Assembly: GCA_016841605.1 (NCBI GenBank)
Contig: JAENYV010000001.1
Span: 165,553-229,552 of the forward strand
From: Dethiobacter alkaliphilus
Lineage (GTDB): Bacteria > Bacillota > Dethiobacteria > DTU022 > UBA8154
DNA: 64,000 nucleotides
Direction of reading: 5' to 3'
Of this stretch, positions 36,223 to 57,122 are shown piece after piece (positions within the stretch are counted from its first letter, which is position 1; each line of letters starts with the position of its first letter). The notes beneath the pieces are model-generated. The model did not search any database and was not told the DNA's origin. It was given only the letters and a program-made list of their open reading frames with translations. The position numbers and the translations under genes were made by a program.

Positions 36223-36813
36223 ATGAAAAAGACGTTTTATAATCTTCTTCAGCCGATTTATCCTTTGCTTGCGCAGCAGTTTGTGGATGATTACGGTTTG
36301 CAAAGCGGCAGGTGTATTGATATAGGAGCCGGTCCCGGCTTTATCGGTATCGAACTGGCCAAAATAACCGATATGGAAATATATTTTGTCGACACTGTTG
36401 ATGAACAGCTGAAACTGGCGCAGGCTAATTTTTTAGCATCCGGAAGCGAAAATAAAGCGCATTTTATTAATTCCGATGTTCACCAATTGGCCTTTGAAGA
36501 TAACTTTGGCGATTTTATTGTCAGCAGGGGTTCGATCTGGTTTTGGCGGGAGCCCCGGGAAGCGTTAAAGGAAATATACCGTGTCCTTAAACCCGGAGGG
36601 ACAGCCTTAATTGGAGGAGGGCTCGGCAGATACGTTCCTGAAACAATGAGAAAACGCTTGATGGAAGCGAATCAGAAAAGACTGGCTGAGCGAGGAGAAA
36701 AAAGACCTACTTTGGCAGAGTTTCAGTTGATGGTGGAAGAGGCCCATTTACCCCATTATCTCGTTATCAGTGAAGAACCGGGAGTGGGAAGATGGGTCGA
36801 GATCAAGAAGTAA
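36223..36813 (+). CDS. Class I SAM-dependent methyltransferase
   Basis: IDIGAGPG motif I and LKPGG motif. Confidence 0.65.
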   Translation: MKKTFYNLLQPIYPLLAQQFVDDYGLQSGRCIDIGAGPGFIGIELAKITDMEIYFVDTVDEQLKLAQANFLASGSENKAHFINSDVHQLAFEDNFGDFIVSRGSIWFWREPREALKEIYRVLKPGGTALIGGGLGRYVPETMRKRLMEANQKRLAERGEKRPTLAEFQLMVEEAHLPHYLVISEEPGVGRWVEIKK

Positions 36814-36866
36814 GCGAAAATGAGTAGAGGAATAAATTTAAAGAAAGAAAGGGGAGTGAGAAACCT

Positions 36867-38449: not shown

Positions 38450-38450
38450 G

Positions 38451-39452: not shown

Positions 39453-39545
39453 AGTAGCACATATAAACGGGTTTCATAAATAGGACGCTCGTACGGCGCT
39501 ATTTTTTGCTTTACTTAAATATTTATATTATTGGGAGGTTTTTTA

Positions 39546-40367
39546 GTGAAAAGGTTTTTTGGGATTTGTGTTGCAGTTTTCTTTATTGTCTTGTTGGGGG
39601 TAACAGGCGGTTGCGGGTCCGGGAATACGGATGACGCTTCCGGTGCAGGTCAAGAAATACAGCCGGGCAGCACGGGAGAAGAGCTCCTGGTCTACAGTGG
39701 TGCCGGATTACGCAAACCAATGGAAGAAATTGCGGGAATGTTCCAGGAAGAAACCGGTATTTTGGTTCAATTTTCCTTTGGTGGTTCAGCTCAGTGTGTC
39801 GGTCAGATTCTGACCGTCGATAAGGGGGATGCCTTTTTGCCGGGGGATGTGGTAGAATTAGATAAATTGATTGAAAAAGATAAGATTGACCTGCAAAAAC
39901 CGGTAGTTCTGCATGTCCCTGTGCTCGCTGTTCCTGCGGGTAATCCCGCCGGGATAACCGGAATAGAAGATCTTGCCGAACCGGGAATTAAGGTTGTTTT
40001 GGGCGACCCTGAGGCCAATCCGATCGGTAAACTGGCTGATAAGGCATTGCAAGAGCTTGGCCTTTTTGAAAAAGTGCAGGCTAATGTCGTGGCCCGGGCA
40101 GCTACGGTCAATGAGCTCTTTGCTTACCTTGCCCTGGGACAGGCAGATGTTGCCGTCATTTGGGAAGACAATCTGGTCGGCAATGAAAAGATCGAACTGA
40201 TTCAGACTTCGGATTTTGATAACTTTATCAAAACTATCCCTGTTGTCTCTTTGAAATGCTCGACCAACCCTGAAGCGGCCAACCGGTTTGTTGAGTTCGT
40301 ATCAAGTGAAAAAGCGATGGGCGTTTGGGAGAAATGCGGGTTTAAACCGGCACCGGAGGCCGAGTAG
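39546..40367 (+). CDS. Molybdate/tungstate ABC transporter substrate-binding lipoprotein (ModA/TupA/WtpA family)
   Basis: Lipobox (VTGGCGS), and VYSGAGLRKPMEEI...FSFGGS is typical of ModA-type binding proteins. The start is probably GTG 39546, after a GGGAGG RBS. The ORF track opens at 39531. Confidence 0.8.
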   Translation: MKRFFGICVAVFFIVLLGVTGGCGSGNTDDASGAGQEIQPGSTGEELLVYSGAGLRKPMEEIAGMFQEETGILVQFSFGGSAQCVGQILTVDKGDAFLPGDVVELDKLIEKDKIDLQKPVVLHVPVLAVPAGNPAGITGIEDLAEPGIKVVLGDPEANPIGKLADKALQELGLFEKVQANVVARAATVNELFAYLALGQADVAVIWEDNLVGNEKIELIQTSDFDNFIKTIPVVSLKCSTNPEAANRFVEFVSSEKAMGVWEKCGFKPAPEAE

Positions 40368-40370
40368 TAA

Positions 40371-41180
40371 ATGAAGAAACTTTGGTGGAAAGACAAATTT
40401 AACATCTTTATGGCTGCAATAGCTTATCTTACTCTTCTTTTTATTATTGCTGCTATTGGAACGGTAATAATGAAGGGGTTTCCGCATATCGGTAAATCCC
40501 TTGCCACCCCGGAGATTCAATTTGCCGTCAAGCTAAGTCTTTATACTTCGCTGATTTCCACGGTTCTCTGTATTGTAATTGCCATTCCTGTAGCATTTGT
40601 TCTGGCCAGGGTGGATATCCCTTTTAAATCTCTTTTCAATACCCTGTTGGATTTACCCCTGGCCTTGCCGCCGGTGGTATCGGGTGTCTGTCTCCTGCTC
40701 TTTTTTGGGACGACAGCTTTCGGAGCCTGGCTGGAAGAGATCGGTCTCCCCTTTGTCTTCACGATAAAAGGAATCATCATTGCCCAAATTTTTGTCAACC
40801 TTCCTTTTATGATCCGGGTCATGAAGTCGACAATTCTCTCGGTGAGCCCGCGTCTGGAATTTATCGCGCGGACCCTGGGCTGTACTCCGACTCAGGCTTT
40901 CTGGAAGATAACCCTCCCTCTTTCAAGAAACGGAATCATTGCCGGGACTGTCATTACCTGGGCAAGAGCGTTAGGGGAGTTCGGAGCAGCGTTGATGCTG
41001 GCCGGAGCAACACGCTTTCGCACGGAGACTTTGCCGATCTCCCTTTTTCTCAACATGTCGACCGGAGATTTGGAAGAGGCGATGGCAGCAGCAAACCTGT
41101 TGATAATAATATCTATTATCTCTCTCTATATCTTTAACAAATTAGGCGGTGATTTTATCGGAGGGACCCGCGGTGTTTAA
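40371..41180 (+). CDS. Molybdate/tungstate ABC permease (ModB/TupB)
   Basis: Permease EAA-like region (ARTLGCTPTQAFWKITLP). Confidence 0.85.
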   Translation: MKKLWWKDKFNIFMAAIAYLTLLFIIAAIGTVIMKGFPHIGKSLATPEIQFAVKLSLYTSLISTVLCIVIAIPVAFVLARVDIPFKSLFNTLLDLPLALPPVVSGVCLLLFFGTTAFGAWLEEIGLPFVFTIKGIIIAQIFVNLPFMIRVMKSTILSVSPRLEFIARTLGCTPTQAFWKITLPLSRNGIIAGTVITWARALGEFGAALMLAGATRFRTETLPISLFLNMSTGDLEEAMAAANLLIIISIISLYIFNKLGGDFIGGTRGV

Positions 41181-41229
41181 ATTTTAGGCGGTTAAGTAAA
41201 ACAAGCATTTTTGTTGGGGAGGACGGCAA

Positions 41230-41958
41230 ATGATAAAACTTGCAGATGTGTCAATAACGCTGGGGGATTTTTCACTGAAGAATGTTCATCTGGAAATAAG
41301 AAAAGGAGAATTCTTTACTATCCTGGGGCCGACGGGTACCGGAAAAACCGTCATCCTGGAGCTGATTGCCGGGTTGTACAGGCCGGACGCCGGTAAAGTG
41401 TTAATTAACGGAGCAGACTCTGAAAACATTCCTCCCGAAAAAAGAGAAATCGGTTTTGTTTATCAGGATTATGCACTTTTTCCCCATCTTAATGTATATA
41501 AAAACATTGCCTTTGGGCCACGACTTCGCAAAATGCCGCCTTCTGCGATTAAAGAAAATGTCCAGGGCCTGGCGGATATGCTGGAAATTACGCACCTGTT
41601 GGCCCGTTTTCCCGGTACTTTGAGCGGTGGTGAGCAGCAGCGTGTTTCACTGGCCAGAGCCCTTATCATGAAACCAAAAATACTTTTAATGGATGAACCG
41701 CTCAGTGCTCTTGATCCCAATACAAAAAGGATGTTATGCGGGGAACTGAAAAGAGTACATGAAAAATACCGCTGTACTGTTGTCCATGTTACCCATGATT
41801 TTAACGAAGCGGCTATGCTGGCGGACCGGATCGGGGTTATACTGAAGGGAAAGGTAAAGCAAGTAGGAGTTCCCAGGGAGGTCTTTGAAAGACCCCGGGA
41901 TCAAGAAGTAAAAAATTTCCTGGGCGTTGAGCCCTTAAAAGCCGTCTATGCACGATAA
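41230..41958 (+). CDS. Molybdate/tungstate ABC ATPase (ModC/TupC)
   Basis: Walker A GPTGTGKT, signature LSGGEQQR and Walker B LLMDEPLSALD. Confidence 0.85.
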   Translation: MIKLADVSITLGDFSLKNVHLEIRKGEFFTILGPTGTGKTVILELIAGLYRPDAGKVLINGADSENIPPEKREIGFVYQDYALFPHLNVYKNIAFGPRLRKMPPSAIKENVQGLADMLEITHLLARFPGTLSGGEQQRVSLARALIMKPKILLMDEPLSALDPNTKRMLCGELKRVHEKYRCTVVHVTHDFNEAAMLADRIGVILKGKVKQVGVPREVFERPRDQEVKNFLGVEPLKAVYAR

Positions 41959-43030: not shown

Positions 43031-43034
43031 GAGT

Positions 43035-44464: not shown

Positions 44465-47400
44465 ATGCTGATTACTAACAAAAATTGGTGGTACAGGCTC
44501 CTGCCGTCTATTTTGATTGTGCTCCTGCTTCCCTGTTTCTTCGGCCTGCCGGTACCGGCCGCTGTTCATTCCGAAGGGGGCATTGTTACAATAACAGAGC
44601 CCACCGGGAATATCAAGAATACCGTTAGCAAGGAAACAGCAAGCGGACCAGGCGGTTCGGCCGGCAACAATGTCACTTTTAAGGACCAGGTTCCCGTATT
44701 TTTGAACATGAATAATCCTGACGGTGTAACCGGGAAAGAAGTGTATGCAGGGCATACCTTATCCGGAACCGACGGCGCAACCCCCGCGGATACAGACAGC
44801 CGTGGATTTATCGTGGTAATGGATGAAGCCGGAATACCAGCTCCGGCTTTGACTGCCGATACCAGCGATAACCTGCTTGGGAAGTCCATAGATATTACCT
44901 TTACGGATAATGCCTCCTGGCGGGCGGCGATTAGCGGTGTGCTTGTGGACGGGGTAGCGCTGCAGTCCGGCAAATACACGGTAAGCGCCGGCAAAATCAG
45001 CATTTCCGGCAGCGTTTTCCAGGAATCGAAAGAATACGCCATTGTAGTTGCAGCCAATGGTTACACCGATGCAAGTGTGAGCCAGATAATCGGTACATTG
45101 ATAATTACCGGAGACGGGGTGACGGATCCCCAAATTTTTACGCAGCCCCAACTCGAGGCAATGCAGCCCCAGCTCGAGGAAATGGAGCCCCAGCATGTTG
45201 TTTACAGTTGCATTAATACCTGGCCCAGCAAGAAATGGTATGTGGGAAAAGGGGTCAAATTAGAAGACCTGCTCACCCAGGCGGGACTGAAAGAAACCGC
45301 CGAACAGATTAAATTCAGTTCCGTTGATGGCTACTATATGACGCTTACAGTCAAGGAGTTATTAACGGACAAGCGTTATTGTTTTCCCAATTTCAAAACC
45401 GGTGGCGACGGAGACGGGCATATTCCCGGTGACCCGTCGGGTGCATTCGAGGTGGAGACTATTCTAGGCCTGGTCAGCGCCGAGGGCACCGACGAATCTT
45501 CCTCTATGAACGATACAAATGCCCTGTTGCTGATGCTGGGGCAGCGGTCAGTTACCGAGCAAACAGGCCCCATATTTGTTAAATACGTCAATAAAATTGA
45601 AGTATTGACTGCTGCACCGGCTAAATGGGATAATCCGACGGCGAGCCCGGATAGTGGCATAGTATCTGCGGGGACCATGGTGGAACTGCATAGCAAGTAC
45701 AACGATTTGGATAAGGTCCATTATACGACGGACGGCAGTACTCCAACCATAGAAAGTCCCATGTATAACTGGATTGCCAGCCGGTGGTGGTCCTCGCGAC
45801 AGGATGTTAAGGACGAAATAAACCACCCGATTGAAATTACAAAGAACACCGCTATTAAGGCAATAGTAATCGGTCCAGGCAAAGAGGACAGCGATATTGT
45901 CACCTTCGAGTACCAGGTTCCTGTTATTATGAACACAGATAATCTTGCCGATGCAACCGAAAACGAAGCATACGCAGGTCATACCTTCACAGCGACAGGC
46001 GGAGCTGAGCCATACAGTTTTGCAGTAACTGCCGGGACACTGCCGGCAGGCATGGTTTTAAACGGTGCCGTATTGGAAGGAACGCCGACTGAGAGTGGGA
46101 CATTTCTCTTCACTGTAACCTTAACGGACAGTGCAGATCCCGCGGATGCAGACAGCCATGAGTTTACCCTGGCGGTTGATGAGGCTGAAGTAGTCACGCC
46201 GGTCTTGAATGCCGATACGACGGACAATAAAGTTGGACAGCCGATCGAGCTGACCTTTACGGATGATGGGCTCTGGCGTTCGGCGATTAGCGGTGTGTTT
46301 GTGGACGAAGTGGTGCTTCAGCCGGAGGAATACACGGTAAGCGCCGGTAAGATTAACATAGCTGCCGGAGTCTTCACGTCAGCAAAAGATTACAGTATCG
46401 TAGTGGAAGCCGAAGGGTACGAAGATGCGGCCGTGACGCAGATTATCACTACGTCGTCAACGCCGGAGACTAAGGAACCACCGGTTCTGACCGCCGATAG
46501 TAGCGATAACCTGAAGGGACGGCCGATCGAGCTGACTTTTACGGATGATGGGCTCTGGCGTTCGGCGATTAGCGGTGTGCTGGTGGACGAAGTGGTGCTT
46601 CAGCCGGAGGAATACACGGTAAGCGCCGGTAAGATTAACATAGCTGCCGGAGTCTTCACGTCAGCAAAAGATTACAGTATCGTAGTGGAAGCCGAAGGGT
46701 ACGAAGATGCGGCCGTGACACAGATTATCACTACGTCGTCAGCGCCGGAAACTAAGGAACCACCGGTTTTGACCGCCGATAATAGCGATAACCTGCTTGG
46801 GCAGGGTATAGATATTACCTTTACGGATGATGGCTCCTGGCGTTCGGCGATTCAAGAGGTTAGTGTGGACGGCGCGGTGCTTCAGCCGGAGAAATACACG
46901 GTTAGTGCCGGTAAGATTGCCATTGTTTCCGGCGTTTTCAAGGAATCGAAAGAATACGCCATCGTAGTTAAAGCAGGCGGGTACCCCGATGCAAGTGTGA
47001 GCCAAACGATTAATAGATTGGTAATTACAGGAGCCGGGGTGACTGAATCCAAGATGTTTACGCAGTCCCAGCTCGAAGCAATGTCGCAGCGCCAGTATGT
47101 GTACAGTTGCATCAATACCTGGCCCAGCAAAAAGTGGTATGTGGGAAAAGGGGTCAAATTGAGCGATCTGCTCACACAGGCGGGGATGAAGGGAAACGCC
47201 AAGCTCATTAAATTTTCTGCCGGCGATGGTTATGCCATGACACTTACTGTTCAGGAAATATTAACGGACAAGCGTTATCGTTTTCCTAATTTCAAGACCG
47301 GTGGCGATGGAGACGGGCATATTCCCGGCGATCCGTCGGGCAAAGTAGAGGTGGAAACTATTCTTGGGCTGGTCAGCGCCGAGGGCACGGACGACCCCTC

Positions 47401-49567
47401 TTATATGAACGACACAAATTCCCTGCTGCTGATGCTGGGACAGCGCTCAGTCATCGAGCAAACCGGCCCCTTATTTGTTAAAAACGTCAATAGAATTGAG
47501 GTACTTACTACTACTCCCGGCAAATGGGATACTCCAAAGGTGACTCCGAGTGGTGGAGAGGTGCCTGTTGGAACCATGGTGGAGCTGCACAGCCTTTTTG
47601 ACGACATGGATAAGGTTCATTACACGATGGACGGCAGTACTCCAACCATAGAAAGTCCCATGTATAACTGGATTGCCAGCCGATGGTGGTCTTCACGGGG
47701 CGAAGAAAAAGTAGCCGAGATTAATCACCCGCTTGAGCTGACAAAAGATACGGTAATCAAAGCAATCACAATTGGTTCCGGTAAGATGAACAGTGATGTT
47801 GTCACCTTTTCCTACAAGGTCAGAACAAGTGCGGACAGCAAAATTACCTCCGGAGAAGGCGGTACAATCAGCCTTGGAGAAGAAGCCGTTCTTGAAATAC
47901 CGGGAGGAGCGCTGACCGGAAGCGGAGCGAGGGAAGTAAAAATAGAACGTGTGGAAACAACTCTCTCGGCCCCGAAGGGCTTCAAGCTACTGGGTAGTGT
48001 ATATGAGTTCAGCGTGGGAGGCAAAAACAGCTACAATTTTGCCAAGAAAGTAACCATTAAGCTCAGCTTTGATGCCGGGGCTGTAAATGCGGACGAGACA
48101 CCGGCCATCCACTATTATGACGAAGCTGCCGGCGAGTGGATAAACCTGGGCGGGGAAGTAAGCGGGAATATAATTACTGTGCAGGTGGATCACTTTACTA
48201 AGTTTGCTGTTATTGCAGCCCTTCCCAGTACTGTGACTGTCAAAGTTGAGCCCCGCGAAGGGGGTACAGTAAGCCTTGGAGAAGAAGCTGTTCTTGCAAT
48301 ACCGGGAGGAGCGCTGACCGGAAGCGGAGCGAGGGAAGTAAAAATAGAACGTGTGGAAACAACTCTCTCGGCCCCGAAGGGCTTCAAGCTACTGGGTAGT
48401 GTATATGAGTTCAGCGTGGGAGGCAAAAACAGCTACAATTTTGCCAAGAAAGTAACCATTAAGCTCAGCTTTGATGCCGGGGCTGTAAATGCGGACGAGA
48501 CACCGGCCATCCACTATTATGACGAAGCTGCCGGCGAGTGGATAAACCTGGGCGGGGAAGTAAGCGGGAATATAATTACTGTGCAGGTGGATCACTTTAC
48601 TAAGTTTGCTGTTATTGCGGCGCTTCCCAGTACTGTGACTGCCAAAGTTGAGCCCCGCGAAGGGGGCACAGTAAGCCTTGGAGAAGAAGCTGTTCTTGCA
48701 ATACCTGAAGGAGCGCTGACCGGAAGCGAAGCACTGGAGGTAAAAATAGAGCGGGTGGTTGTACCTCCTGCTCCACCAGCGGGCTTCAAGCTGCTGAGCG
48801 ATATGTTTGATTTCAGTGTGGACGGCAAGAAGTGGTATCGCTTTGCCGGGGAAGTTACCATCAAGCTCAGCTTCGCTCCTGAGGTAAGAAAAGCGGAAGA
48901 GATCCCGGTTATTTATTGCTACGACGAATTCTCGCGGCGTTGGATAAACCTGGGCGGGGAGATAAACGGGACCACTGTTACTGTACAGGTGGACCACTTC
49001 ACCAAATTTGCCGTAATGGCAGCAATGGAGCAGGGATTGGCAGATATCGCCGGGCACTGGGCGGAATACAGTATTAAAGAACTGCTTACCCTTGGGGCTA
49101 TTAGCGGTTATCCGGACGGCACCTTTAAGCCCGACAAGATAATAACCAGGGCTGAATTTACCACAGTGCTGGCGAAGTCCTTTCAGCTTGAAAACAGGGG
49201 CGAAAAGACCTTTATCGACACTGAGGCACACTGGGCCAAAAATTACATAGCTGCGGCAGTAGCGGAGGGTATTGTCAATGGCTATGACACCGCGACCTTC
49301 GGACCGGATAATCCGGTCACCCGCGAGCAGATGGCTGTGATGACCGTCAAGGCGGCCAAAGTATCTCCGGAAGCAGGAGAGCCCCTCTTTGACGACAGCG
49401 GCAGTATCTCCGCGTGGGCCGGGGAAGCCCTGGTCACAGCGATGGAGAACGGGCTCATAGAGGAATATGCCGATAACACCGTCCGGCCTCAGAACAGTGC
49501 CACCAGGGCCGAAGCTGTTACAGTTATTGTGAATGCGTTGCATAAGGCGGGAGAGAGGAAAATATAA
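44465..49567 (+). CDS. Large S-layer-homology (SLH) cell-surface protein with two divergent sulfite-oxidase-fold domains, two CHB_HEX_C domains, an Ig-like domain, 4x approximately 91-aa 'ADTSDN...ITFTDD' repeats, 3x 134-aa repeats and 3 C-terminal SLH domains
   Basis: 1700 aa with a Sec signal peptide. The SO-like domains lie at about 45110-45620 and 47030-47520 (YSCINTWPSKKWYVGKGVKL...LLLMLGQR...FVKYVNKIEV). The CHB_HEX_C-like domains are recognised by HYTTDGSTPTIESPMYNWIA. The SLH region is at about 49020-49560 (AGHWAEYSIKELLTLGAISGYPDGTFKPD). Confidence 0.85.
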   Translation: MLITNKNWWYRLLPSILIVLLLPCFFGLPVPAAVHSEGGIVTITEPTGNIKNTVSKETASGPGGSAGNNVTFKDQVPVFLNMNNPDGVTGKEVYAGHTLSGTDGATPADTDSRGFIVVMDEAGIPAPALTADTSDNLLGKSIDITFTDNASWRAAISGVLVDGVALQSGKYTVSAGKISISGSVFQESKEYAIVVAANGYTDASVSQIIGTLIITGDGVTDPQIFTQPQLEAMQPQLEEMEPQHVVYSCINTWPSKKWYVGKGVKLEDLLTQAGLKETAEQIKFSSVDGYYMTLTVKELLTDKRYCFPNFKTGGDGDGHIPGDPSGAFEVETILGLVSAEGTDESSSMNDTNALLLMLGQRSVTEQTGPIFVKYVNKIEVLTAAPAKWDNPTASPDSGIVSAGTMVELHSKYNDLDKVHYTTDGSTPTIESPMYNWIASRWWSSRQDVKDEINHPIEITKNTAIKAIVIGPGKEDSDIVTFEYQVPVIMNTDNLADATENEAYAGHTFTATGGAEPYSFAVTAGTLPAGMVLNGAVLEGTPTESGTFLFTVTLTDSADPADADSHEFTLAVDEAEVVTPVLNADTTDNKVGQPIELTFTDDGLWRSAISGVFVDEVVLQPEEYTVSAGKINIAAGVFTSAKDYSIVVEAEGYEDAAVTQIITTSSTPETKEPPVLTADSSDNLKGRPIELTFTDDGLWRSAISGVLVDEVVLQPEEYTVSAGKINIAAGVFTSAKDYSIVVEAEGYEDAAVTQIITTSSAPETKEPPVLTADNSDNLLGQGIDITFTDDGSWRSAIQEVSVDGAVLQPEKYTVSAGKIAIVSGVFKESKEYAIVVKAGGYPDASVSQTINRLVITGAGVTESKMFTQSQLEAMSQRQYVYSCINTWPSKKWYVGKGVKLSDLLTQAGMKGNAKLIKFSAGDGYAMTLTVQEILTDKRYRFPNFKTGGDGDGHIPGDPSGKVEVETILGLVSAEGTDDPSYMNDTNSLLLMLGQRSVIEQTGPLFVKNVNRIEVLTTTPGKWDTPKVTPSGGEVPVGTMVELHSLFDDMDKVHYTMDGSTPTIESPMYNWIASRWWSSRGEEKVAEINHPLELTKDTVIKAITIGSGKMNSDVVTFSYKVRTSADSKITSGEGGTISLGEEAVLEIPGGALTGSGAREVKIERVETTLSAPKGFKLLGSVYEFSVGGKNSYNFAKKVTIKLSFDAGAVNADETPAIHYYDEAAGEWINLGGEVSGNIITVQVDHFTKFAVIAALPSTVTVKVEPREGGTVSLGEEAVLAIPGGALTGSGAREVKIERVETTLSAPKGFKLLGSVYEFSVGGKNSYNFAKKVTIKLSFDAGAVNADETPAIHYYDEAAGEWINLGGEVSGNIITVQVDHFTKFAVIAALPSTVTAKVEPREGGTVSLGEEAVLAIPEGALTGSEALEVKIERVVVPPAPPAGFKLLSDMFDFSVDGKKWYRFAGEVTIKLSFAPEVRKAEEIPVIYCYDEFSRRWINLGGEINGTTVTVQVDHFTKFAVMAAMEQGLADIAGHWAEYSIKELLTLGAISGYPDGTFKPDKIITRAEFTTVLAKSFQLENRGEKTFIDTEAHWAKNYIAAAVAEGIVNGYDTATFGPDNPVTREQMAVMTVKAAKVSPEAGEPLFDDSGSISAWAGEALVTAMENGLIEEYADNTVRPQNSATRAEAVTVIVNALHKAGERKI
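46241..46786 (+). repeat. Two near-identical tandem copies of a roughly 273-bp coding repeat
   Basis: 46241-46513 and 46514-46786 are nearly identical at the nucleotide level (ccgatcgagctgac...gaaccaccggtt). They encode the ADTSDN/ITFTDD-type domain. Confidence 0.85.
47850..49015 (+). repeat. Three tandem copies of a roughly 400-bp coding repeat (copies 1 and 2 identical over more than 330 bp; copy 3 diverged)
   Basis: ccgggaggagcgctgaccggaagcggagcgagggaagtaaaaatagaacgtgtggaaac recurs at 47900 and 48302. The units encode the approximately 134-aa VKIERVETTLSAPKGFKLLGSVYEFSVGG...VDHFTKFAV domain. Confidence 0.85.
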
Positions 49568-49620: not shown

Positions 49621-50205
49621 TTGAGTAAAATGTACCGGAAAAGAATTTCCTTTATAACAACTATAACAACGCTATCGTTATTGTTTTTTCTTCTAATGCT
49701 TTACCTTACGTTTTTGGCCGGATGTCAGGGTGGTCAGCCGACTTCAGCCGGAGAAGGTATTCTAGTAATACGGGGGGATGCTGTGGAAGGTGAAGTTTGC
49801 CTTACCCTGGATGAATTAAAGTCCATGGAGGACGGCCTGATTGAAGACGATTATTTTTCCGTTAATTCATACGGGACAAAGGAGTATTTTCATTTCAAGG
49901 GCATCTGGATCTGGCATGTTTTACAAGAAAAAACGGACTTAAAGGATAATGCCTCCAAGGTGACTTTCATTGCAGAGGACGGTTACACAGTGGAATACAC
50001 GCTGGAAGAGGTCAAGAGGGAAGATTATATTGACGAGCAAAATCCTGCGACAAAGTACAAGATGATCCTGGCCTGGGAAGAAAATGGAAAAGAGTATGAT
50101 CCGGATGAAGGCAATCCCTTTCAACTGGTCGTCGGTCAAAAGGAGCCGGGTGATGAAAACAAACCATACTGGGTGCGCAATGTAAAGACCATCCGCATTG
50201 ATTGA
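49621..50205 (+). CDS. Lipoprotein consisting of a single divergent sulfite-oxidase/YedY-fold (Oxidored_molyb-like) domain lacking the Mo-ligand Cys
   Basis: Lipobox LAGC. ILAWEENGKEYDPDEGNPFQLVVGQKEPGDENKPYWVRNVKTIRI aligns to the SO-family hallmark LLAYEMNGEPL..GFPLRLVVPG..G..VKWL..IEV. Confidence 0.6.
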   Translation: MSKMYRKRISFITTITTLSLLFFLLMLYLTFLAGCQGGQPTSAGEGILVIRGDAVEGEVCLTLDELKSMEDGLIEDDYFSVNSYGTKEYFHFKGIWIWHVLQEKTDLKDNASKVTFIAEDGYTVEYTLEEVKREDYIDEQNPATKYKMILAWEENGKEYDPDEGNPFQLVVGQKEPGDENKPYWVRNVKTIRID

Positions 50206-50261: not shown

Positions 50262-51344
50262 GTGGAAGAAAAAATGAAAAAACATAAGAACTATTACCTG
50301 AGCAATCGGGATCTGCTTATTGTTGCTGTTTTGAGCGGTATCGGAGGAGTGATGAGTACCTATATCGGCTATCTGGGCAATCTCCTGAACCGTATTTGCG
50401 GTGTTCCTTTCGGTGCGGGACAGTTCGTCTCCGGTTTGCATATTTTCTGGTTTATCCTGGTGGCGGGGCTGATCAGGCGACCGGGAGCTGTTACCGTCGC
50501 GGGTCTGCTCAAAGGAGTAATTGAATTGCTCACCGGCAGTACCCACGGGGTTGTCATTGTCTTGATTTCTCTGATACAGGGTCTTATCGTCGATGTTGTC
50601 CTTCTGATTGCCAGGCGCCGGAATTTGGGAAGCTATATGCTGGCCGGCGGGCTTTCCGCCGCCTCAAATGTTTTTGTCTTTCAGCTCCTCTACTTTTCCG
50701 GTGTCCCTTTCACCTATCTTCTCTTTATAGGACTTTTAGCCTTTGTTTCCGGAGTTCTTCTGGCAGGCAGCTTTGGTCACAGTGTGCTGGATATTGTGTT
50801 GCAGGCCAGGCCTTTTCGTTTGGCCGATGCTTCAAGGGAAGAGACAGCCGCAACAGCCGCGACCCCCGGGAGCAAAAAAAGAGTCCTCCCCCGTTTAAGG
50901 ATTGCTGCAACGGTTCTACTGGTTGTGCTGTTTTTTATTGGTGCGGTTTATTACTTTACCGCTGTCTTTGAACCTCCCTGGGTAGGCCCCAGCTGCCGGG
51001 TAGAAGGAGCGGTAGAAAACCCCCTCTCTTTCCAGCTTTCCCGTTTCGACCGGTATGAAACAACCATAACCGCCGAATTAAAGGGGCAGGTTAGCTACAT
51101 CCCTCCGCAGGAGTATACAGGCATCCCCTTAAGTATAATTCTCCAGGAGGCCTCTCCCCTGGATGAGGCTAAAAAGCTTAAAGTTATGGCAACGGATGGT
51201 TATATGGTGGAATTTGAACTGCAAGAAGTGTTAAATGACGACCTGATGGTACTGATCCGGGAAGAAGATATGCTTCGCCTTATAGCCGGAAATTACGAAG
51301 GAGGATACTGGGTGAAACTGGTAAACAGAATGATAGTGGAATAA
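50262..51344 (+). CDS. Fusion protein: N-terminal polytopic membrane domain (5-6 TM, ECF-transporter S-component-like) + C-terminal sulfite-oxidase-fold domain
   Basis: GTG start. TM region 1-190. The C-terminus (ATDGYMVEFELQEV...LIAGNYEGGYWVKLVNRMIVE) is SO-like. It ends at an in-frame TAA, after which the same frame encodes a CHB_HEX_C domain. Confidence 0.55.
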   Translation: MEEKMKKHKNYYLSNRDLLIVAVLSGIGGVMSTYIGYLGNLLNRICGVPFGAGQFVSGLHIFWFILVAGLIRRPGAVTVAGLLKGVIELLTGSTHGVVIVLISLIQGLIVDVVLLIARRRNLGSYMLAGGLSAASNVFVFQLLYFSGVPFTYLLFIGLLAFVSGVLLAGSFGHSVLDIVLQARPFRLADASREETAATAATPGSKKRVLPRLRIAATVLLVVLFFIGAVYYFTAVFEPPWVGPSCRVEGAVENPLSFQLSRFDRYETTITAELKGQVSYIPPQEYTGIPLSIILQEASPLDEAKKLKVMATDGYMVEFELQEVLNDDLMVLIREEDMLRLIAGNYEGGYWVKLVNRMIVE

Positions 51345-51656
51345 ATAAATCTTATTACTGAGGAAGAGCCGGACCAATGGGATGAGCCGACCTCATCGCA
51401 TGTATCGGGGACGGTAACGGCCGGGACACAGGTAACGCTCAATCATACCGGTATCAACGAGGTGAGAATTTATTATACAACTGACAGCAGCACCCCGGAT
51501 GTGAACAGTACCATGTACAATGTAAGCGCTACCTACTACCAGCCGCAGTTGAACGTACCTATTACGATCAACCAAACTGCTACAATTAAGGCTATCGCCA
51601 TCGGACCGGGTAAAACCGATAGCGATGTAGCTGTTTGGACCTATATGTTGGAATAA
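51345..51656 (+). pseudogene. Orphan CHB_HEX_C domain in frame with, and immediately downstream of, the stop codon of the 50262 gene
   Basis: Translation ...EEEPDQWDEPTSSHVSGTVTAGTQVTLNHTGINEVRIYYTTDSSTPDVNSTMYNV...IKAIAIGPGKTDSDVAVWTYMLE is colinear with the domain that follows the SO-like domain in every paralog. There is no start codon except an internal GTG at 51462. Confidence 0.6.
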
Positions 51657-51697
51657 CTGTTTTGGCTAAAGACAGCTAATGTTGTTGTCTAAAACGG

Positions 51698-52543
51698 TTA
51701 AACGGCTATCATGGTTACACCGATATTTACAGGCCGGCCAAAATACATGGAAGTGGTAACGATGGCATCCACTCCTGTTGCCGCATATTTTTCAACATTA
51801 GTTTCGTTTATTCCCCCGGCGGCAATGGTCAGAATGTGCGGGAAATCTTTTTTTATCTCCCGGACCAGGTCGGCTATTTTTTCGGGAGACAATTTATCAA
51901 ACTGTAACCCGTCAATACCCGCGTTGCATAAATAATCTGCTTCTTCCGGTTGTTCAATTTCTACGATTATCTTTTTTTCACAGGTTTTTGTTTTTAATTC
52001 CTGTATTTTTGCAGCCAGTTTGTCCTCCGATTCCAGGAAAACCCGGTGATGCTTAAAAATAAGTATTGTTTCCGATAAGCCGAGCCGGTGAGGAAAACCT
52101 CCGCCGCTCAAAACAGCCTTAATGGATAATTCTTTTGTTCCCGGGAATACCTTTCTTGTTGATAGTATAGAGACGTTCCGGTTTACTTTCTTCGCTTTTT
52201 CTACCAGCTTGTTGGTGCGAGAAGCCACTGCACTGGCATACTCCAGGATATTCTGGGAAGGTTTCCAGAGCAGGTGCAAAACATCTGCTTTACCGCTAAT
52301 TTTCATAAAGATCTGTCCGGGAAGGACTTTCGAACCTGAAGGGGTATATTCGAGCACCCGGCCTCCCTTTAGCTCACACAAACGTGCAATTTCCTCCGTG
52401 CCGCAAAGAACGGCTTCATCCCTGCTGAGGAAGTGCATTTCTCCGTCCCGGCTACCGATATTCAACATAAAGGTAGTGAGATCCATGTAAGGAGTATCTT
52501 CTTTAAGCCATTTTTCTAAAGTATCATTGGTGATATTAACCAT
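51698..52543 (-). CDS. modD: ModD/NadC-family quinolinate-phosphoribosyltransferase-like protein (probable molybdenum utilisation protein ModD)
   Basis: 281-aa type II PRTase fold (NadC-like). Assigned to ModD rather than NadC because of the Mo/W transporter context and because no nadA/nadB are nearby. Confidence 0.65.
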   Translation of the reverse strand: MVNITNDTLEKWLKEDTPYMDLTTFMLNIGSRDGEMHFLSRDEAVLCGTEEIARLCELKGGRVLEYTPSGSKVLPGQIFMKISGKADVLHLLWKPSQNILEYASAVASRTNKLVEKAKKVNRNVSILSTRKVFPGTKELSIKAVLSGGGFPHRLGLSETILIFKHHRVFLESEDKLAAKIQELKTKTCEKKIIVEIEQPEEADYLCNAGIDGLQFDKLSPEKIADLVREIKKDFPHILTIAAGGINETNVEKYAATGVDAIVTTSMYFGRPVNIGVTMIAV

Positions 52544-52906: not shown

Positions 52907-54655
52907 ATGGCGCAGGGAAATAATCTTCAATTAAAAAAATGGTTGTATAAGCAATTAATAACCATTCCAGCTCTGTTATTACTTACTGCTTCGTTTTATC
53001 TGACGGCGCCTGCGGTTGCTTTGGCCATACAGTCGGACTCGCTGGAAATTATCGGGGACGGGGTGACGACTCCTGTGACGTTCACCTTGGCCGAGCTTGA
53101 GGCGATGAAGCAATACGAGCAAGTCTACAGTACGATCAACACTTATCCGACCAAGAGATGGTACACGGCAAGAGGGGTTAAATTGAGGAACCTGCTTGCT
53201 TTGGCAGGAATGACAGAAGAAGCCGAAATGATTAAGTTTATATCCAATGATGGCTACGATGTGACCCTTACGGTTAAAGAACTGCTGGAAGACAAACGGT
53301 ATTATTTTCCGGGTTTAAAGGAGAATCATCCCAGTGATGGAAGCATTCCAGGTTCTCCGGAGGGGGCGCAGGAGGTTGAGCCTATCCTTGCCCTTATCAG
53401 TGCCGAGGGCAGTGACAATCCGGCTAATATGAACGACAGGGATTTCTTGCTGCTGATGCTGGGGCAGCGGGCCGTAACCGAGCAGACGAATAATTTGTTT
53501 TTAAAATATACAAGTAGAATCGAGGTGCTTACCACTGCTCCGGAAAAATGGGATAGTCCGAAGACGAGTATTCCGGACGGCACCGTGCTGCCTCCGGGGA
53601 TCATGCTGGAATTGAGCAATAAGGGCAATGACGATGATAAAATTTATTATACCCTGGACGGCAGCACTCCCACGGTGAACAGCCCTATGTTTAACTGGAG
53701 CGCCAGTCGCTGGTGGCCTTTACGAGCGAATGACCTGGAGAGTGTCAACAGGCCGATCGAGCTTACGGAGGACACCGTCCTCAAGGCCATCACCATCGGT
53801 CCCGGCAGGGAGGATAGCGATGTGGTCACGTTTACCTTCACTACTGATCCCACGGCTGTGGACCCGACGAAGATCCCCGGCGGACCGCCGACCGGCGTGA
53901 CCCTCGACCGCAATGCAATTGACCTCAAAGTCGGCGCCACTTTTCAGCTGCAGGCGACGATAGCTCCGTACAATGCCACGGACCGGAGCGTAACCTGGAG
54001 TTCCAGTGATACCAGGACGGCCACGGTGGATAACAATGGCCTGGTAACCGTTGTCGGCCCGGGCTCGGCTACCATCACCGTAAAAACTTTAGTCGGCAAA
54101 TATATATCCTCCTGCATCGTGAACGGTCCTGAACAGGATGATGATGAAGGGGGCGCTATAATTGCCGGTCCCGTTTCTCCGGAAAATGAAGCCCAGGAGG
54201 ATCCTTTGGAGCCGTCGGCGGAAGAACCATTGGTGGAAGAGATTCAAGAAGAGGAGCTTTCAGTAGAGGAGCCGCCGCCATTACCGGAAGATGATCAGCA
54301 GTTCGTGGAAGATAAGGTTACGGCTGATCCCGCGACAGCACCTTCAAAAACCCCTGATAAAGCACCGGACTCTTCCGATGAACCACCAGTGGATGAGTTG
54401 CCTGTACCGGATGTCAAAGGGCAGTATTTGGCGGAAAAGGATGCAGTAGCACTCGCTTCACCCGCTGGCGATGTTTCCTCAGAACAGCCGGGTAGCCTTA
54501 CCCGGCAGATATTCGAAATGTCGCTTGATGTTACTGTACCATTGCCATTACAGGAGGTGCAAAACGAACTGAATATTTATACTGCTGCTATTTTCCTGTT
54601 TCTTTTTCTTTCCGGTATAAGCAAAAAAATCGTAGAATATGCAAAGGAGCTTTGA
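52907..54655 (+). CDS. Secreted/membrane-anchored protein: sulfite-oxidase-fold domain + CHB_HEX_C + Big_2 Ig-like domain + acidic Pro/Glu-rich linker + C-terminal hydrophobic anchor
   Basis: Signal peptide, and YSTINTYPTKRWYTARGVKL (the Cys position is Thr here). The Big_2 motif is VTLDRNAIDLKVGATFQLQATIAPYNATDRSVTWSSSD. C-terminal TM segment is IYTAAIFLFLFLSGI. Confidence 0.75.
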   Translation: MAQGNNLQLKKWLYKQLITIPALLLLTASFYLTAPAVALAIQSDSLEIIGDGVTTPVTFTLAELEAMKQYEQVYSTINTYPTKRWYTARGVKLRNLLALAGMTEEAEMIKFISNDGYDVTLTVKELLEDKRYYFPGLKENHPSDGSIPGSPEGAQEVEPILALISAEGSDNPANMNDRDFLLLMLGQRAVTEQTNNLFLKYTSRIEVLTTAPEKWDSPKTSIPDGTVLPPGIMLELSNKGNDDDKIYYTLDGSTPTVNSPMFNWSASRWWPLRANDLESVNRPIELTEDTVLKAITIGPGREDSDVVTFTFTTDPTAVDPTKIPGGPPTGVTLDRNAIDLKVGATFQLQATIAPYNATDRSVTWSSSDTRTATVDNNGLVTVVGPGSATITVKTLVGKYISSCIVNGPEQDDDEGGAIIAGPVSPENEAQEDPLEPSAEEPLVEEIQEEELSVEEPPPLPEDDQQFVEDKVTADPATAPSKTPDKAPDSSDEPPVDELPVPDVKGQYLAEKDAVALASPAGDVSSEQPGSLTRQIFEMSLDVTVPLPLQEVQNELNIYTAAIFLFLFLSGISKKIVEYAKEL

Positions 54656-54661
54656 AGCAAG

Positions 54662-55333
54662 GTGACGGAATCTATTTTATTATCCTTAAAAGATACCATG
54701 CATGTCATCTCGTCAAATTTATTGATACCTACTATTATTATCCTGCTCCTACTTTTGGCTTTGACCGTAGTCGAACTCGGCGGTATTCTGGCGGAAACCC
54801 TGACGGAAAGACGCAGGATGAAAGTCGACGTGTCGGAGTTGGTTGACGCTTTTCAAGGGAAGGATGCCGGCAAGATTATGGACAAGATCGAGCATAGCCT
54901 TTTGTTACGGCGTCAGAAGAAGGTTCTCGGCAAGCTAATCAGGCACAGCAATTTGCCGTCTGCCTCGTTGCAGGCACTGGCGCGCCGCTTGCTTGCCGGT
55001 GAGGAACTGCATTATACCAAGATAACAAACAGGACCGATCTGGTGGTGCGTTTGGGTCCCATGTTCGGATTGATGGGCACTCTCATTCCACTAGGGCCGG
55101 GTATGATCGCCCTCGGCCAGGGGGATACCAAGACACTGGCAGATTCTCTGCTCATCGCCTTTGACACAACAATAACCGGCCTGGCAGCCGCGGGTATTGC
55201 TTTTGCCATTTCCCGGTTACGGAAACGGTGGTATGATGATTACTTGAGTAATCTGGAGGCCTTAATGGAGAGCCTATTGGAGGTGTTTGCTCATGAACGG
55301 GGGATTGAGAAGCAGGAGGTACAGGACGCATAG
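54662..55333 (+). CDS. exbB: MotA/TolQ/ExbB-family proton channel protein
   Basis: LGPMFGLMGTLIPLG...LADSLLIAFDTTITGLAAAGIAFAI is the ExbB/TolQ signature. Confidence 0.8.
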   Translation: MTESILLSLKDTMHVISSNLLIPTIIILLLLLALTVVELGGILAETLTERRRMKVDVSELVDAFQGKDAGKIMDKIEHSLLLRRQKKVLGKLIRHSNLPSASLQALARRLLAGEELHYTKITNRTDLVVRLGPMFGLMGTLIPLGPGMIALGQGDTKTLADSLLIAFDTTITGLAAAGIAFAISRLRKRWYDDYLSNLEALMESLLEVFAHERGIEKQEVQDA

Positions 55334-55619
55334 GGAATCAGAAGATATCAATCCTCTGGAGGGCGTTATCAACATTGTAGATGCCATGCTGGTATTTGCC
55401 TGCGGACTTATGCTTGCTTTGGCTGTTTACTGGAACATCGACCTGGGCCCCATAGGAGAACGAATCAATATAAACCGTGGACGGGAGGTGACGGAAGTCC
55501 CGGAGTTACGTGACGACCTGATTGAAACCCAAGACCAGGGAAAGCTTTACGAAAGAATGGGCACCGTCTATAAAGACCCCGCAACCGGGCAGCTTTTTAT
55601 GCTGACCGACGAGGAATAA
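55287..55619 (+). CDS. exbD: ExbD/TolR-family protein
   Basis: INPLEGVINIVDAMLVFACGLM matches the ExbD pattern of a single TM plus a periplasmic domain. It overlaps the exbB 3' end. The exact start is uncertain. Confidence 0.6.
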   Translation: MLMNGGLRSRRYRTHRESEDINPLEGVINIVDAMLVFACGLMLALAVYWNIDLGPIGERININRGREVTEVPELRDDLIETQDQGKLYERMGTVYKDPATGQLFMLTDEE

Positions 55620-55643
55620 TAAAGATAAGGGGGGACTAGATCA

Positions 55644-57122
55644 ATGCAAGCTGATAAAAGGAAAGGGGAGACACCCCCGGCATATCCGCCGGAATCTTCT
55701 CAGTTAAAGAGATGGATTTACAGGTCCATGATGATTGTCCTGGGTATGTTAATGCTGGTAAGTATGTTTTACATGCCGTTGCCCGCGGTTGTCCATGCCG
55801 CGACGGACTCGCTGGAAATTACCGGAGACGGGGTGACGGACCCGCTGACCCTGACCCTGACCCAGTTAGAGGAAATGGAGCAATACCAGTATACATACAG
55901 TTGTATTAACACGTGGCCTACCAAAAAATGGTATGTAGGTAAAGGAGTTAAATTGAGCGATCTGCTCGCCAGGGCGGGGATGACCGATGAGGCCAGGCTG
56001 CTTAAATTTACGGCTGTCGACGGTTACACAGTGACGCTTACGGTCAAGGAACTGTTAAAAGATAAGCGTTATCGTTTTCCCAATTTCAAGAGCGGTGGCG
56101 GCGATGGTGACGGGCATACTCCGGGCGATCCTTCGGGTCAGGTGGAGGTAGTGACGATTATCGGCCTGGTCAGCGTCGAAGGCAGCGATAATCCCCAGTA
56201 TATGAACGATCTGAATACTTTGCTGTTGATGCTGGGGCAGCGTGCTGTAACTGAGCAGACAGGAAACCTTTTCGTTAAATATCTGAACAAGATCGAAGTA
56301 CTTACGGACGAGCCGGAAAAATGGGATGCACCGCAGGCCAATCCGGACAGTAGCACAGTGCCCGCGGGAACCATGGTGACACTGAGCAATCTCCACAATG
56401 ATGACGACAAAATTTATTATACCACGGACGGCAGTGAGCCGACCCGGAACAGCCCCATGTATAACTGGATTGCCAAGCGCTGGTGGTCATCACGGGCGGA
56501 TGTACTGGGAACCATCAATCACCCTATCGGACCCATTGAGAAAGATACAATCATCAAGGCGGTTACCATCGGACCCGGTAAAGCGGACAGCGATGTCGTT
56601 ACCTTCAAATATCAGGTTTCCGGGGCTGAGCCGGACAACGGGACATCAACGTCAACAGTCACACCCGGTCCGGAAGAGTCTGAGACAACAGAAGAACACG
56701 GGACAGATGAAATGAAAGGCGAAGTACCCGGGAAACCGTCGCAAAAAATTATCAAGCTTGCCATTGACCGGATGGAAGCGGATATTGACGGCAATACCTG
56801 CGCTCTGGAGGCAGCACCTTATCTCAACACCGAGGTCGGTCGTGTCCTGGTTCCGGTACGGTTTGTCAGCGAAGCCCTGGGTGCCGGAGTTAATTGGAAC
56901 CCGGAAAAAGGACAGATAACCGTCACCGATGAAGGAAAAGAAATTCTCCTGACCCTCGGTTCCGGCAATGTTCAGATCAACGGTATACCGCAGGCCGTTG
57001 ATTGTGTTCCGGTTACACTCCCGCCCGGCCGTACTTTTATCCCCCTCCGCTTTGTGAGTGAGACCCTTGGAGCGAAGGTGGGCTACAAAGCAGAGACCGG
57101 AGAGATCACCATCACAAGATAG
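55644..57122 (+). CDS. Secreted protein: sulfite-oxidase-fold domain (Cys retained) + CHB_HEX_C + copper-amine-oxidase-N-terminal-like cell-wall domain
   Basis: Signal peptide and YSCINTWPTKKWYVGKGVKLSDLL. The C-terminus (VLVPVRFVSEALGAGVNWNPEKGQITVT...FIPLRFVSETLGAKVGY) matches the Cu_amine_oxidN1 domain used as a wall anchor in Clostridia. Confidence 0.75.
   Translation: MQADKRKGETPPAYPPESSQLKRWIYRSMMIVLGMLMLVSMFYMPLPAVVHAATDSLEITGDGVTDPLTLTLTQLEEMEQYQYTYSCINTWPTKKWYVGKGVKLSDLLARAGMTDEARLLKFTAVDGYTVTLTVKELLKDKRYRFPNFKSGGGDGDGHTPGDPSGQVEVVTIIGLVSVEGSDNPQYMNDLNTLLLMLGQRAVTEQTGNLFVKYLNKIEVLTDEPEKWDAPQANPDSSTVPAGTMVTLSNLHNDDDKIYYTTDGSEPTRNSPMYNWIAKRWWSSRADVLGTINHPIGPIEKDTIIKAVTIGPGKADSDVVTFKYQVSGAEPDNGTSTSTVTPGPEESETTEEHGTDEMKGEVPGKPSQKIIKLAIDRMEADIDGNTCALEAAPYLNTEVGRVLVPVRFVSEALGAGVNWNPEKGQITVTDEGKEILLTLGSGNVQINGIPQAVDCVPVTLPPGRTFIPLRFVSETLGAKVGYKAETGEITITR

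Follow-up and report, generated by a model that had tools for sequence, protein, structure and literature searches.

How is a stop codon to be read when a complete protein domain follows it in the same frame? The question arises in a stretch of 64,000 nucleotides (nt) from Dethiobacter alkaliphilus (contig JAENYV010000001.1, positions 165,553 to 229,552; hereafter the window, in whose own numbering positions are given). Here an open reading frame (ORF) at 50262-51344 encodes a membrane domain fused to a domain of the sulfite oxidase (SUOX) fold and ends in a TAA codon, behind which the frame runs on through a CHB_HEX_C domain. A preliminary description of this DNA assigned the CHB_HEX_C domain to the fusion protein and read the TAA as a recent nonsense mutation, a sequencing error or a site of programmed readthrough. 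The explanation that best accounts for the evidence taken together, and that is held here with considerable confidence, is a different one: the stop is native, the piece behind it is a relic, and the fusion protein is the S component of an energy-coupling factor (ECF) module with a putative importer role.

50262..51344, plus strand: fusion gene (S component, seventh transmembrane helix and SUOX-fold ectodomain), native TAA included (Pfam, HMMER, AlphaFold, Foldseek)
50304..50807, amino acids (aa) 15-182, plus strand: S-component core with six transmembrane helices, YkoE/PF09819 type (Pfam, HMMER, Foldseek, AlphaFold)
50886..50963, aa 209-234, plus strand: seventh transmembrane helix (AlphaFold secondary structure and predicted local distance difference test, pLDDT)
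50991..51338, aa 244-359, plus strand: degenerate SUOX-fold ectodomain (HMMER, Foldseek; beta-rich in the AlphaFold model)
51342..51344, plus strand: TAA, native stop of the fusion gene, with A as the next base (same aligned position in 27/27 orthologous loci)

Where does the fusion protein end in its relatives? Orthologous loci were gathered as eight contigs fetched via homologue proteins and 21 loci from GTDB genomes (some are named below by L numbers), and the 3' end of the fusion gene is present in 27 of them. All 27 stop at the identical aligned residue, in the motif …V(N/S)(R/K)xxV(E/K/R/Q)*, a position common also to the 28 aligned proteins, and none carries a CHB_HEX_C tail. A database search with the hypothetical 464-aa readthrough product gave 548 matches, of which the best 120 were listed (57-81% identical); among those 120, again, no tail is found. 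Their length is about 350-365 aa and they cover just 76-78% of the query; the exceptions are one partial sequence (95% identical) and a few contig-truncated entries (330-345 aa). One listed homologue of 420 aa has an N-terminal extension only, and its end is still …VNRLLIE. The orthologue check suggested in the preliminary description thus turned up no uninterrupted frame. The TAA stop at 51342-51344 is ancestral to a conserved family of proteins, and the CHB_HEX_C domain is no interrupted part of the fusion protein.

What kind of protein ends at this codon? Translated in a single frame, 50262-51659 yields an ORF of 360 aa, the TAA at 51342-51344, 103 sense codons and a second TAA at 51654-51656; the gene starts with GTG, and GGAGG lies 7 nt before it. 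With its 360 aa the ORF is complete, and its family joins a YkoE-type S component to a seventh transmembrane helix and a Cys-less sulfite-oxidase-fold domain, an architecture that is real and conserved across Syntrophomonadaceae, Dethiobacteria and relatives. The order of a membrane domain followed by a SUOX-fold domain had been proposed at the outset, as had the placing of the former in the ECF S-component class, and both hold. Pfam assigns aa 16-133 to PF09819 (ABC_cobalt, the family of YkoE-type S components; E 5.6e-20, 72.2 bits, cut-off 25.2) and aa 246-358 to PF00174 (Oxidored_molyb; E 2.2e-5, 24.5 bits, cut-off 24). The N-terminal domain also matches the YkoE structure 5EDL, both by HMMER profile (E 1.9e-14) and by Foldseek (E 4e-7, template-modelling (TM) score 0.75, root-mean-square deviation 2.2 Å, 27% identity). 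The AlphaFold model, built on 28 homologues with a mean pLDDT of 76.6, has six helices in the S-component core, within the five to six first counted, and a separate seventh before the beta-rich domain, which that count had overlooked.

On which side of the membrane does the SUOX-like domain lie? Between the S-component core and the seventh helix there is a disordered basic linker at aa 184-208 (…SKKRVLPRLR; AlphaFold and sequence). The termini of S components are known to be cytoplasmic, so that this linker and the seventh helix would put the C-terminal domain outside the cell, on the outer face of the membrane. The domain itself matches SoxC (2XTS, E 3.4e-7) and SorA (E 3e-5) by HMMER profile, and its Foldseek matches are SorA and YedY (probability 1.0) and the PruR proteins 7RKB and 7KOS (E 4e-4 to 9e-4, TM score 0.59, 14-17% identity). 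Neither the 28-protein alignment nor the profile alignment contains a conserved molybdenum (Mo)-ligating Cys between the aligned blocks, and the Cys-hairpin stretch that separates these blocks has 19 residues against 38 in SorA. In paralogues the equivalent position, in the motif YS(C/T/V)IN, is occupied by C, T or V. Lacking the Cys, the ectodomain is not a SUOX enzyme. The columns that are invariant in the fusion family are DGY 312-314, LRL 338-340, Y345, G347 and W350.

Homologues of the fusion protein are annotated at source as "ECF transporter S component", "thiamin/HMP permease" or "molybdopterin-dependent oxidoreductase". A scan of NCBIfam found a specific model neither for the fusion protein nor for the small SUOX-like protein encoded before it, and a literature search returned nothing relevant on the fusion of an ECF S component with a domain of molybdopterin type.

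Which genes accompany the fusion gene? In 26 orthologous loci, ecfAA', a fused double ATPase gene (514-527 aa), begins 4-75 nt after the fusion stop and ecfT comes next; in the 27th, from Thermotogae (45% identity), ecfT lies downstream. Thermovorax subterraneus has the ATPase and T genes fused into one gene of 793 aa. The orthologous ATPase passes the cut-off of the NCBIfam model ECF_ATPase_1 (TIGR04520), the T component matches CbiQ, and ecfT is present in every orthologous locus with enough downstream DNA. Upstream, a small SUOX-like gene lies 512-875 nt before the fusion start in 22 loci. From these 26 and 22 loci a conserved unit emerges, made up of small SUOX-like protein, fusion, EcfAA' and EcfT, so that in the related genomes examined the fusion gene stands second in a module of four. 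The window holds the first of these genes as well:

49621..50205, plus strand: small Cys-less SUOX-like protein, 194 aa, with a lipoprotein-type signal, …FLAGC (Pfam Oxidored_molyb, E 9e-7)

A hydrophobic segment followed by xGC is found in this 194-aa protein and in most orthologues, at least nine of them, the lipoprotein-type signals having been judged by eye on the sequences. Together with the seventh helix of the fusion protein, this lipobox of its partner suggests an extracytoplasmic position for the ectodomain.

In the window itself the module stops after its second gene. A tblastn search of the 64 kb with four orthologous EcfT proteins gave no match, and for ecfAA' no orthologue was found there, only generic matches to ATP-binding cassette (ABC) ATPases at 24-37% identity. 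Of the features of an ECF group I system, which the orthologues have in full, the window therefore has the six-helix S component and lacks the operon genes for EcfT and EcfA/EcfA'. The place of ecfAA'T is taken by the 312-nt CHB_HEX_C piece and then by modD, which is convergent with it; a CHB_HEX_C piece in this position is confined to the lineage of the window. The sparse-ORF region at 57-64 kb was considered as a hiding place for ecfAA'T and rejected, as it is taken up by a single giant ORF that extends past the window end, and not by decayed genes. That ORF (57784 to >64000, >2072 aa) is repetitive and open-ended, hence its absence from the ORF list; its orthologue in a sister strain has Fn3_assoc, He_PIG, Shr-like HID, LRR_5 and beta-helix domains.

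Has the fusion gene decayed along with its module? Measured against the sister strain, its ratio of non-synonymous to synonymous substitution rates (dN/dS) is 0.24 in the 5' part and 0.08 in the 3' part, and that of the small SUOX-like gene is 0.22. A fusion gene still under purifying selection after the ECF genes had left probably uses an ECF module encoded elsewhere in the genome, and it is with such a module that the S component of the window probably works.

How does the protein compare with known systems? The closest by its membrane part is YkoE of the Bacillus subtilis YkoEDC transporter for thiamine or hydroxymethylpyrimidine (HMP) (5EDL, PF09819), which has the same six-helix S-component core; like YkoE, the fusion orthologues are encoded with dedicated EcfA/A' and EcfT genes in a group I layout. 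Unlike YkoE, the fusion protein adds a transmembrane helix and an extracytoplasmic SUOX-fold domain of 115 aa, a lipoprotein copy of which is encoded upstream, it has no thiamine pyrophosphate (TPP) riboswitch, and in the window its A/A' and T genes are missing.

By its outer part, the protein is reminiscent of PruR, a Cys-less, secreted protein with a truncated SUOX fold in which a pterin is stacked between a Tyr and a Trp (PMC11194511). PruR, from Agrobacterium and other Proteobacteria (7KOS, 7RKB; PMC11194511), is likewise a small, extracytoplasmic, degenerate SUOX fold. The ectodomain shares with it the absence of the Mo-ligating Cys and the shortened Cys hairpin (Foldseek E about 4e-4), and PruR, too, is predicted to be a lipoprotein, as is the 194-aa partner of the fusion. 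The invariant DGY 312-314 and W350 are candidate counterparts of Y104, W160 and N102 of the Agrobacterium tumefaciens PruR, with the reservation that HMMER aligns no PruR, and the PW motif of PruR is not seen in the ectodomain. At the low identity quoted above and with no HMMER match, the ectodomain resembles PruR by fold, without demonstrable membership of its family. The company also differs: the fusion protein has ECF components and surface proteins as partners and not DcpA, the enzyme of cyclic di-GMP (c-di-GMP) metabolism, and it belongs to Bacillota, not Proteobacteria.

The SUOX molybdoenzymes (SorA, SoxC, YedY/MsrP, sulfite oxidase) share the fold, and their C-terminal …LRL(V/I)…G.(Y)WVK… aligns. 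In contrast to these enzymes, the ectodomain has no conserved Cys ligand, only half the hairpin, and no dimerisation or haem domain. Since a Sec-type membrane helix places it outside, insertion of the molybdenum cofactor (Moco) in the cytoplasm followed by twin-arginine (Tat) export would not be available to it. In its logic of tethered capture the fusion protein is similar to OpuA and GlnPQ, ABC importers with a binding domain fused to the membrane subunit. In the Isd/LhaSTA haem relays, cell-wall-anchored paralogues feed a membrane importer, as in the model proposed here for the fusion protein, and with LhaSTA there is a precedent for an ECF transporter within a surface relay (PMC7299338). 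The binding domains of these systems have unrelated folds (substrate-binding protein and NEAT, respectively), and the fusion protein is known from sequence and models.

What might such a system import? One clue is regulatory. When 20 of the orthologous loci (282 kb) were scanned with Rfam, six of them were found to carry the riboswitch for Moco or the tungsten cofactor (Wco), RF01055, in seven copies scoring 46-75 bits (cut-off 36):

L005 1804-1924, plus strand: RF01055, heads the array containing the fusion
L007 3201-3320, plus strand: RF01055, heads the array containing the fusion
L021 1515-1633, plus strand: RF01055, heads the array containing the fusion
L018 7946-8061, minus strand: RF01055, beside the ECF operon
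L015 15599-15718, minus strand: RF01055, beside the ECF operon
L030 5823-5939, plus strand, and 9396-9512, minus strand: RF01055, two copies beside the ECF operon

In L005, L007 and L021 the array is co-directional and runs from the riboswitch through a phosphoesterase, an S-layer-homology (SLH)/SUOX-like protein, the small SUOX-like protein and the fusion to ecfAA'T. In L018 and L030 the riboswitch heads genes for a TupA-like ABC transporter and a MOT1 molybdate transporter that adjoin the ECF operon. The riboswitches of the 20 loci are of the Moco type, with a single c-di-GMP riboswitch besides; no thiamine or cobalamin riboswitch is among them. The exception is a c-di-GMP-I riboswitch at L017 16795-16880, about 5.7 kb downstream of the ECF operon. 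The phosphoesterase, a metallophosphoesterase resembling purple acid phosphatases, recurs at L003 1-2002, L005 2002-3510, L007 3333-4937 and L021 6228-7856; that of L003 carries Big_2 domains and is therefore probably extracellular.

Genes for molybdenum transport are found in the window as well, on both sides of the module:

39531..41958, plus strand: modABC, encoding a molybdate ABC transporter, upstream within this gene array (SBP_bac_11 E 1.7e-54, BPD_transp_1, ABC_tran)
51698..52543, minus strand: ModD, quinolinate phosphoribosyltransferase-like, molybdenum-transport-associated (TIGR01334, 218 bits against a cut-off of 179; QRPTase_N/C)

The genes modABC and modD flank the ECF operon in L003 too, and modD does so in L010; a ModE-like gene is also present in the window.

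Published work gives this setting some background. Among the 62 Moco riboswitches in a survey of 255 genomes, the targets are Moco biosynthesis and transporters of molybdenum or tungsten (Mo/W), with no transporter of cofactor type (PMC3766115). According to a 2026 review, no pterin transporter is known (PMC13259868), and Caenorhabditis elegans takes up dietary Moco without a known transporter (PMC7849362, PMC9793310). A literature search found nothing relevant on an ECF transporter under a Moco riboswitch or on bacterial Moco uptake. The substrate would be, at somewhat under an even chance, a Moco-related pterin: molybdopterin, Moco/Wco, cyclic pyranopterin monophosphate (cPMP) or a breakdown product. 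A pterin is favoured by the Moco-binding fold, present here in a degenerate, PruR-like form, and by the association of the operon with Moco/Wco riboswitches, Mo/W transporters, ModD and the probably extracellular phosphoesterase. The uptake or salvage role suggested in the preliminary description gains from the dedicated ECF operons and from the Moco riboswitches and Mo/W transport genes that adjoin them, and stays at the level of a plausible assignment.

Several observations weigh against this assignment. The ligands known for S components of the YkoE type are thiamine and HMP, and pterins are not among them. In the window no Moco riboswitch was detected, either at the gathering cut-off or at E ≤ 1, and tblastn found no gene for a purple-acid-phosphatase-like phosphoesterase there. 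The riboswitch stands at the head of the array in just three of the 20 loci scanned, and gaps of 240-630 nt ahead of the small SUOX-like gene could hold separate promoters. The case for the ligand is built on the similarity of fold to PruR, at the TM score and identity given above, and on the conserved DGY and W.

Other genes of the window bear on the question of the ligand, and they include surface proteins with the same domains:

44465..49567, plus strand: S-layer-anchored protein of 1700 aa with two SUOX-like plus CHB_HEX_C units and four Shr-like HID domains (Pfam)
52907..57122, plus strand: companion block of a SUOX-like plus CHB_HEX_C plus Big_2 protein (582 aa), MotA/ExbB, DUF2149 and a SUOX-like plus CHB_HEX_C plus Cu_amine_oxidN1 protein (492 aa) (Pfam, tblastn)
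54662-55333: MotA/ExbB, within the companion block (Pfam)
about 55293-55619: DUF2149, within the companion block (tblastn)

The gene for the 1700-aa protein lies directly upstream of the small SUOX-like gene, and equivalent SLH/SUOX-like genes lie ahead of the module in L001, L005, L007 and L021. The protein has near-identical internal repeats and its orthologue in the sister strain has just 927 aa, a difference that suggests a recent internal duplication. The companion block lies upstream of the ECF module in L003, L005, L007/L008, L010, L017 and L027. Its energiser pair of MotA/ExbB and DUF2149, set between two genes for SUOX-like surface proteins, is unexpected in Bacillota; DUF2149 is otherwise mentioned, reportedly, with the Porphyromonas Hmu haem-uptake locus. 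An ABC system of the FecCD type is among the neighbours in the window.

Could the ectodomain serve something other than pterin capture? It may, though this is on the doubtful side, dock to the SUOX-like S-layer proteins, sense a signal, or serve another substrate, for which Mo/W oxyanions, a thiamine-type pyrimidine and a tetrapyrrole can be named. The YkoE relatives bind thiamine or HMP (source annotations, PDB 5EDL), and a tetrapyrrole would suit the haem-linked pair of MotA/ExbB and DUF2149, the Shr-like HID domains and the nearby FecCD-type system, the more so as a haem-specific ECF transporter, LhaSTA, exists within a surface relay (PMC7299338). Plain Mo/W oxyanion transporters are also regulated by Moco riboswitches (PMC3766115); however, dedicated oxyanion transporters (ModABC, TupA-like, MOT1) already adjoin the operon. 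Such other functions are further disfavoured by the Moco/pterin-binding fold with its invariant C-terminal LRL…Y.G..W motif, and by the 20 loci having no riboswitch for thiamine, cobalamin or any other ligand besides the Moco type and the one for c-di-GMP.

How would the parts of the intact system act together? The seventh helix would hold the SUOX-like domain outside the cell. This tethered domain and its lipoprotein copy, fed by the S-layer-anchored paralogues, would capture the ligand and pass it to the pocket of the S component, and EcfAA'T would then drive import. Among ECF transporters, it would correspond to the ABC importers whose binding domains are tethered.

What, finally, is the piece behind the stop codon? 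It consists of two parts:

51345..51377, plus strand: junction spacer INLITEEEPDQ, like the end of the SUOX-like domain and linker of a paralogue (alignment with sister strain and paralogues)
51378..51656, plus strand: relic of a gene for a paralogous surface protein, comprising the whole CHB_HEX_C/Fn3_assoc domain and a stop of its own (Pfam)

The piece starts INLITEEEPDQWDEP and aligns with IEVLTxxPxKWDxP of the window paralogues; the earlier observation that the stop falls at the exact point where the paralogues continue was accurate, and a full CHB_HEX_C domain does follow in the same frame, over the 103 sense codons to the TAA at 51654-51656. Pfam scores it as Fn3_assoc (E 6.5e-17, 61.8 bits, cut-off 23) and CHB_HEX_C_1 (E 9e-16, 58 bits, cut-off 22). 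Its identity to the CHB_HEX_C domains of the window and of all fetched loci is 34-47%, and its only relative in the protein databases is a 64-aa ORF (P0121, 92% identical) from the sister strain, in the same arrangement. A metagenome scan gave an intact relative, L031, at 61% identity and a second match at 38%; L031 encodes 471 aa with a signal peptide, a SUOX-like domain, a CHB_HEX_C domain with the same short-loop variant, and SLH repeats. These identities mark the piece as the middle of a divergent paralogous surface-protein gene. It has neither the signal peptide nor the SUOX-like domain and ends just past CHB_HEX_C. In the window lineage, the 312-nt piece is thus the last strand, linker and CHB_HEX_C domain of a divergent gene for a SUOX-like surface protein, and it is read here as a relic, untranslated or nearly so.

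The sister strain, represented by two contigs of JGI metagenome 3300033145 (L001 and L009; 92-96% nt identity to the window), has the same junction in an altered form. Its spacer, in place of 51345-51377, consists of extra GGAATAAAT copies and has a second in-frame TAA inside; from TGG GAT GA(G/A) onward it is 94% identical to the window. How might the junction have formed? A deletion or rearrangement may have joined the base after the stop codon to a near-homologous point of the paralogue, leaving an untranslated relic that would be in frame by chance (1 in 3). That the breakpoints are near-homologous suggests that two SUOX-like domain sequences recombined at their 3' ends. Had the crossover fallen in the shared GAATAAAT motif, the relic would be out of frame, and no specific microhomology is claimed for this reason.

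The fusion gene of the sister strain has met with a further event:

51130..51133, no strand: TAAG, insertion site in the fusion gene of the sister strain (contig break on both sides)

Contig L001 follows the window as far as 51133, and L009 takes it up at 51130, with about 110 nt of unrelated sequence past each end (L001 10873-10982, L009 1-107). Two contigs that break with a TAAG overlap and have unrelated ends mean an insertion inside the gene, by which the S-component gene of this strain has since been struck. Neither a clear terminal inverted repeat nor a copy in the window was found for the inserted DNA (about 110 nt per end). Elsewhere, a 2.8-kb part of the window (36459-39291), which encodes an SBP_bac_6 protein, a CobW/HypB/MobB-like GTPase and an atypical ABC ATPase, is absent from L001.

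Is the piece truly dead? Some of the evidence sits awkwardly with a relic. In Pfam it scores as high as the intact paralogues at 52907 and 55644, and over 92 codons neither strain has a stop or an indel. Its dN/dS against the sister strain is 0.36-0.40, at P = 0.052 in a test of neutrality on 16 substitutions, so that weak constraint, and hence some expression, may persist. No close intact parent gene was found in any close relative. These points lend something to the idea that the piece is a functional small gene or domain, expressed from the GTG at 51462 (64 aa) or by reinitiation after the stop, an idea to which the gene call of P0121 in the sister strain and the stop position common to both strains (TAA and TAG) can be added.

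Such a gene is nevertheless unlikely. The GTG at 51462 is the sole canonical in-frame start in the piece and lies inside the domain, so that the first strands would be lost. A GAGG abuts it without spacing and reads GGGG in the sister strain; no start preceded by a Shine-Dalgarno sequence was found for the piece. There is no signal peptide either, though the domain otherwise sits in secreted surface proteins, and between 51344 and 51462 no promoter-like site was found. The 28 codons upstream of the GTG evolve like the 64 codons downstream of it. With only 16 substitutions (seven synonymous and nine non-synonymous, 4:5:7 over the codon positions, at 94% nt identity), the intactness of the piece says little. 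For comparison, dN/dS is 0.22-0.26 in the other SUOX-like genes and 0.04 in modD.

Did the fusion protein, then, once continue into CHB_HEX_C, and did the TAA arise only recently by nonsense mutation or through a sequencing error, or is it read through? The frame is kept across the stop, and the domain downstream is intact and begins where the paralogues go on. These features notwithstanding, such a history is very improbable, for the tail is found in none of the orthologues or listed homologues, and their identical stop excludes all three explanations for this TAA. A nonsense pseudogene was rejected, as all orthologues have a stop at the position and none a sense codon. A read error is ruled out by the sister strain, which has the same TAA, as well as by the 27 orthologous loci. 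Programmed readthrough was rejected on two counts: the in-frame extension is not conserved in any orthologue, and the sister strain has two in-frame TAAs, the second nine codons after the first, within a rebuilt spacer that is the least conserved stretch between the two strains. TAA is, moreover, the commonest and standard stop of the window (18/35 genes, six of those 18 with an A after it), and it is the least leaky stop in bacteria. The last alternative, an assembly chimera of the fusion gene and an unrelated CHB_HEX_C fragment, is scarcely credible: paralogous repeats are abundant at the locus and could mislead an assembler, but the independent metagenome contig L009 has the same succession of fusion 3' end, relic and modD, at 92% nt identity over 9 kb.

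Some further features of the window stand apart from these questions. Between modC and the gene for the SLH protein (42029-44177) lie a radical S-adenosylmethionine (SAM) protein gene (AmmeMemoRadiSam-like, with a weak MoaA-like match) and a gene for a 390-aa protein without a family match, both kept in the sister strain and not in the other loci. A 148-aa ORF at 6813-7259 matches the C-terminal third of DctM only (profile positions 275-413 of 413) and is probably the remnant of a truncated gene of a tripartite ATP-independent periplasmic (TRAP) transporter. A class II lanthipeptide synthetase of the LanM type (DUF4135 and LANC_like) is encoded at 20277-23546 on the minus strand, with small ORFs nearby at 19198-20189, and a tellurite-resistance-like cluster occupies 111-6246 (StiP/PELOTA, a 271-aa ORF, AIM24, YceG_bac and TelA).

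What does the locus mean for the biology of these organisms? The question of the TAA is settled, and its answer is ordinary; the locus offers an example of how an in-frame remnant can mimic a readthrough site. The fusion protein is of wider interest. By definition, ECF transporters work without an extracytoplasmic binding protein, and here an S component is tethered to a domain of binding type, with a lipid-anchored copy alongside. Tentatively, and as a possibility only, fusion, lipoprotein and S-layer paralogues might form a new kind of ECF importer by which syntrophic anaerobes scavenge Moco-type pterins under riboswitch control. If this is true, it would be the first transporter known for pterins of the Mo/W-cofactor type in any organism, and the fusion family provides a concrete, clonable candidate for how Moco or free pterins cross membranes.

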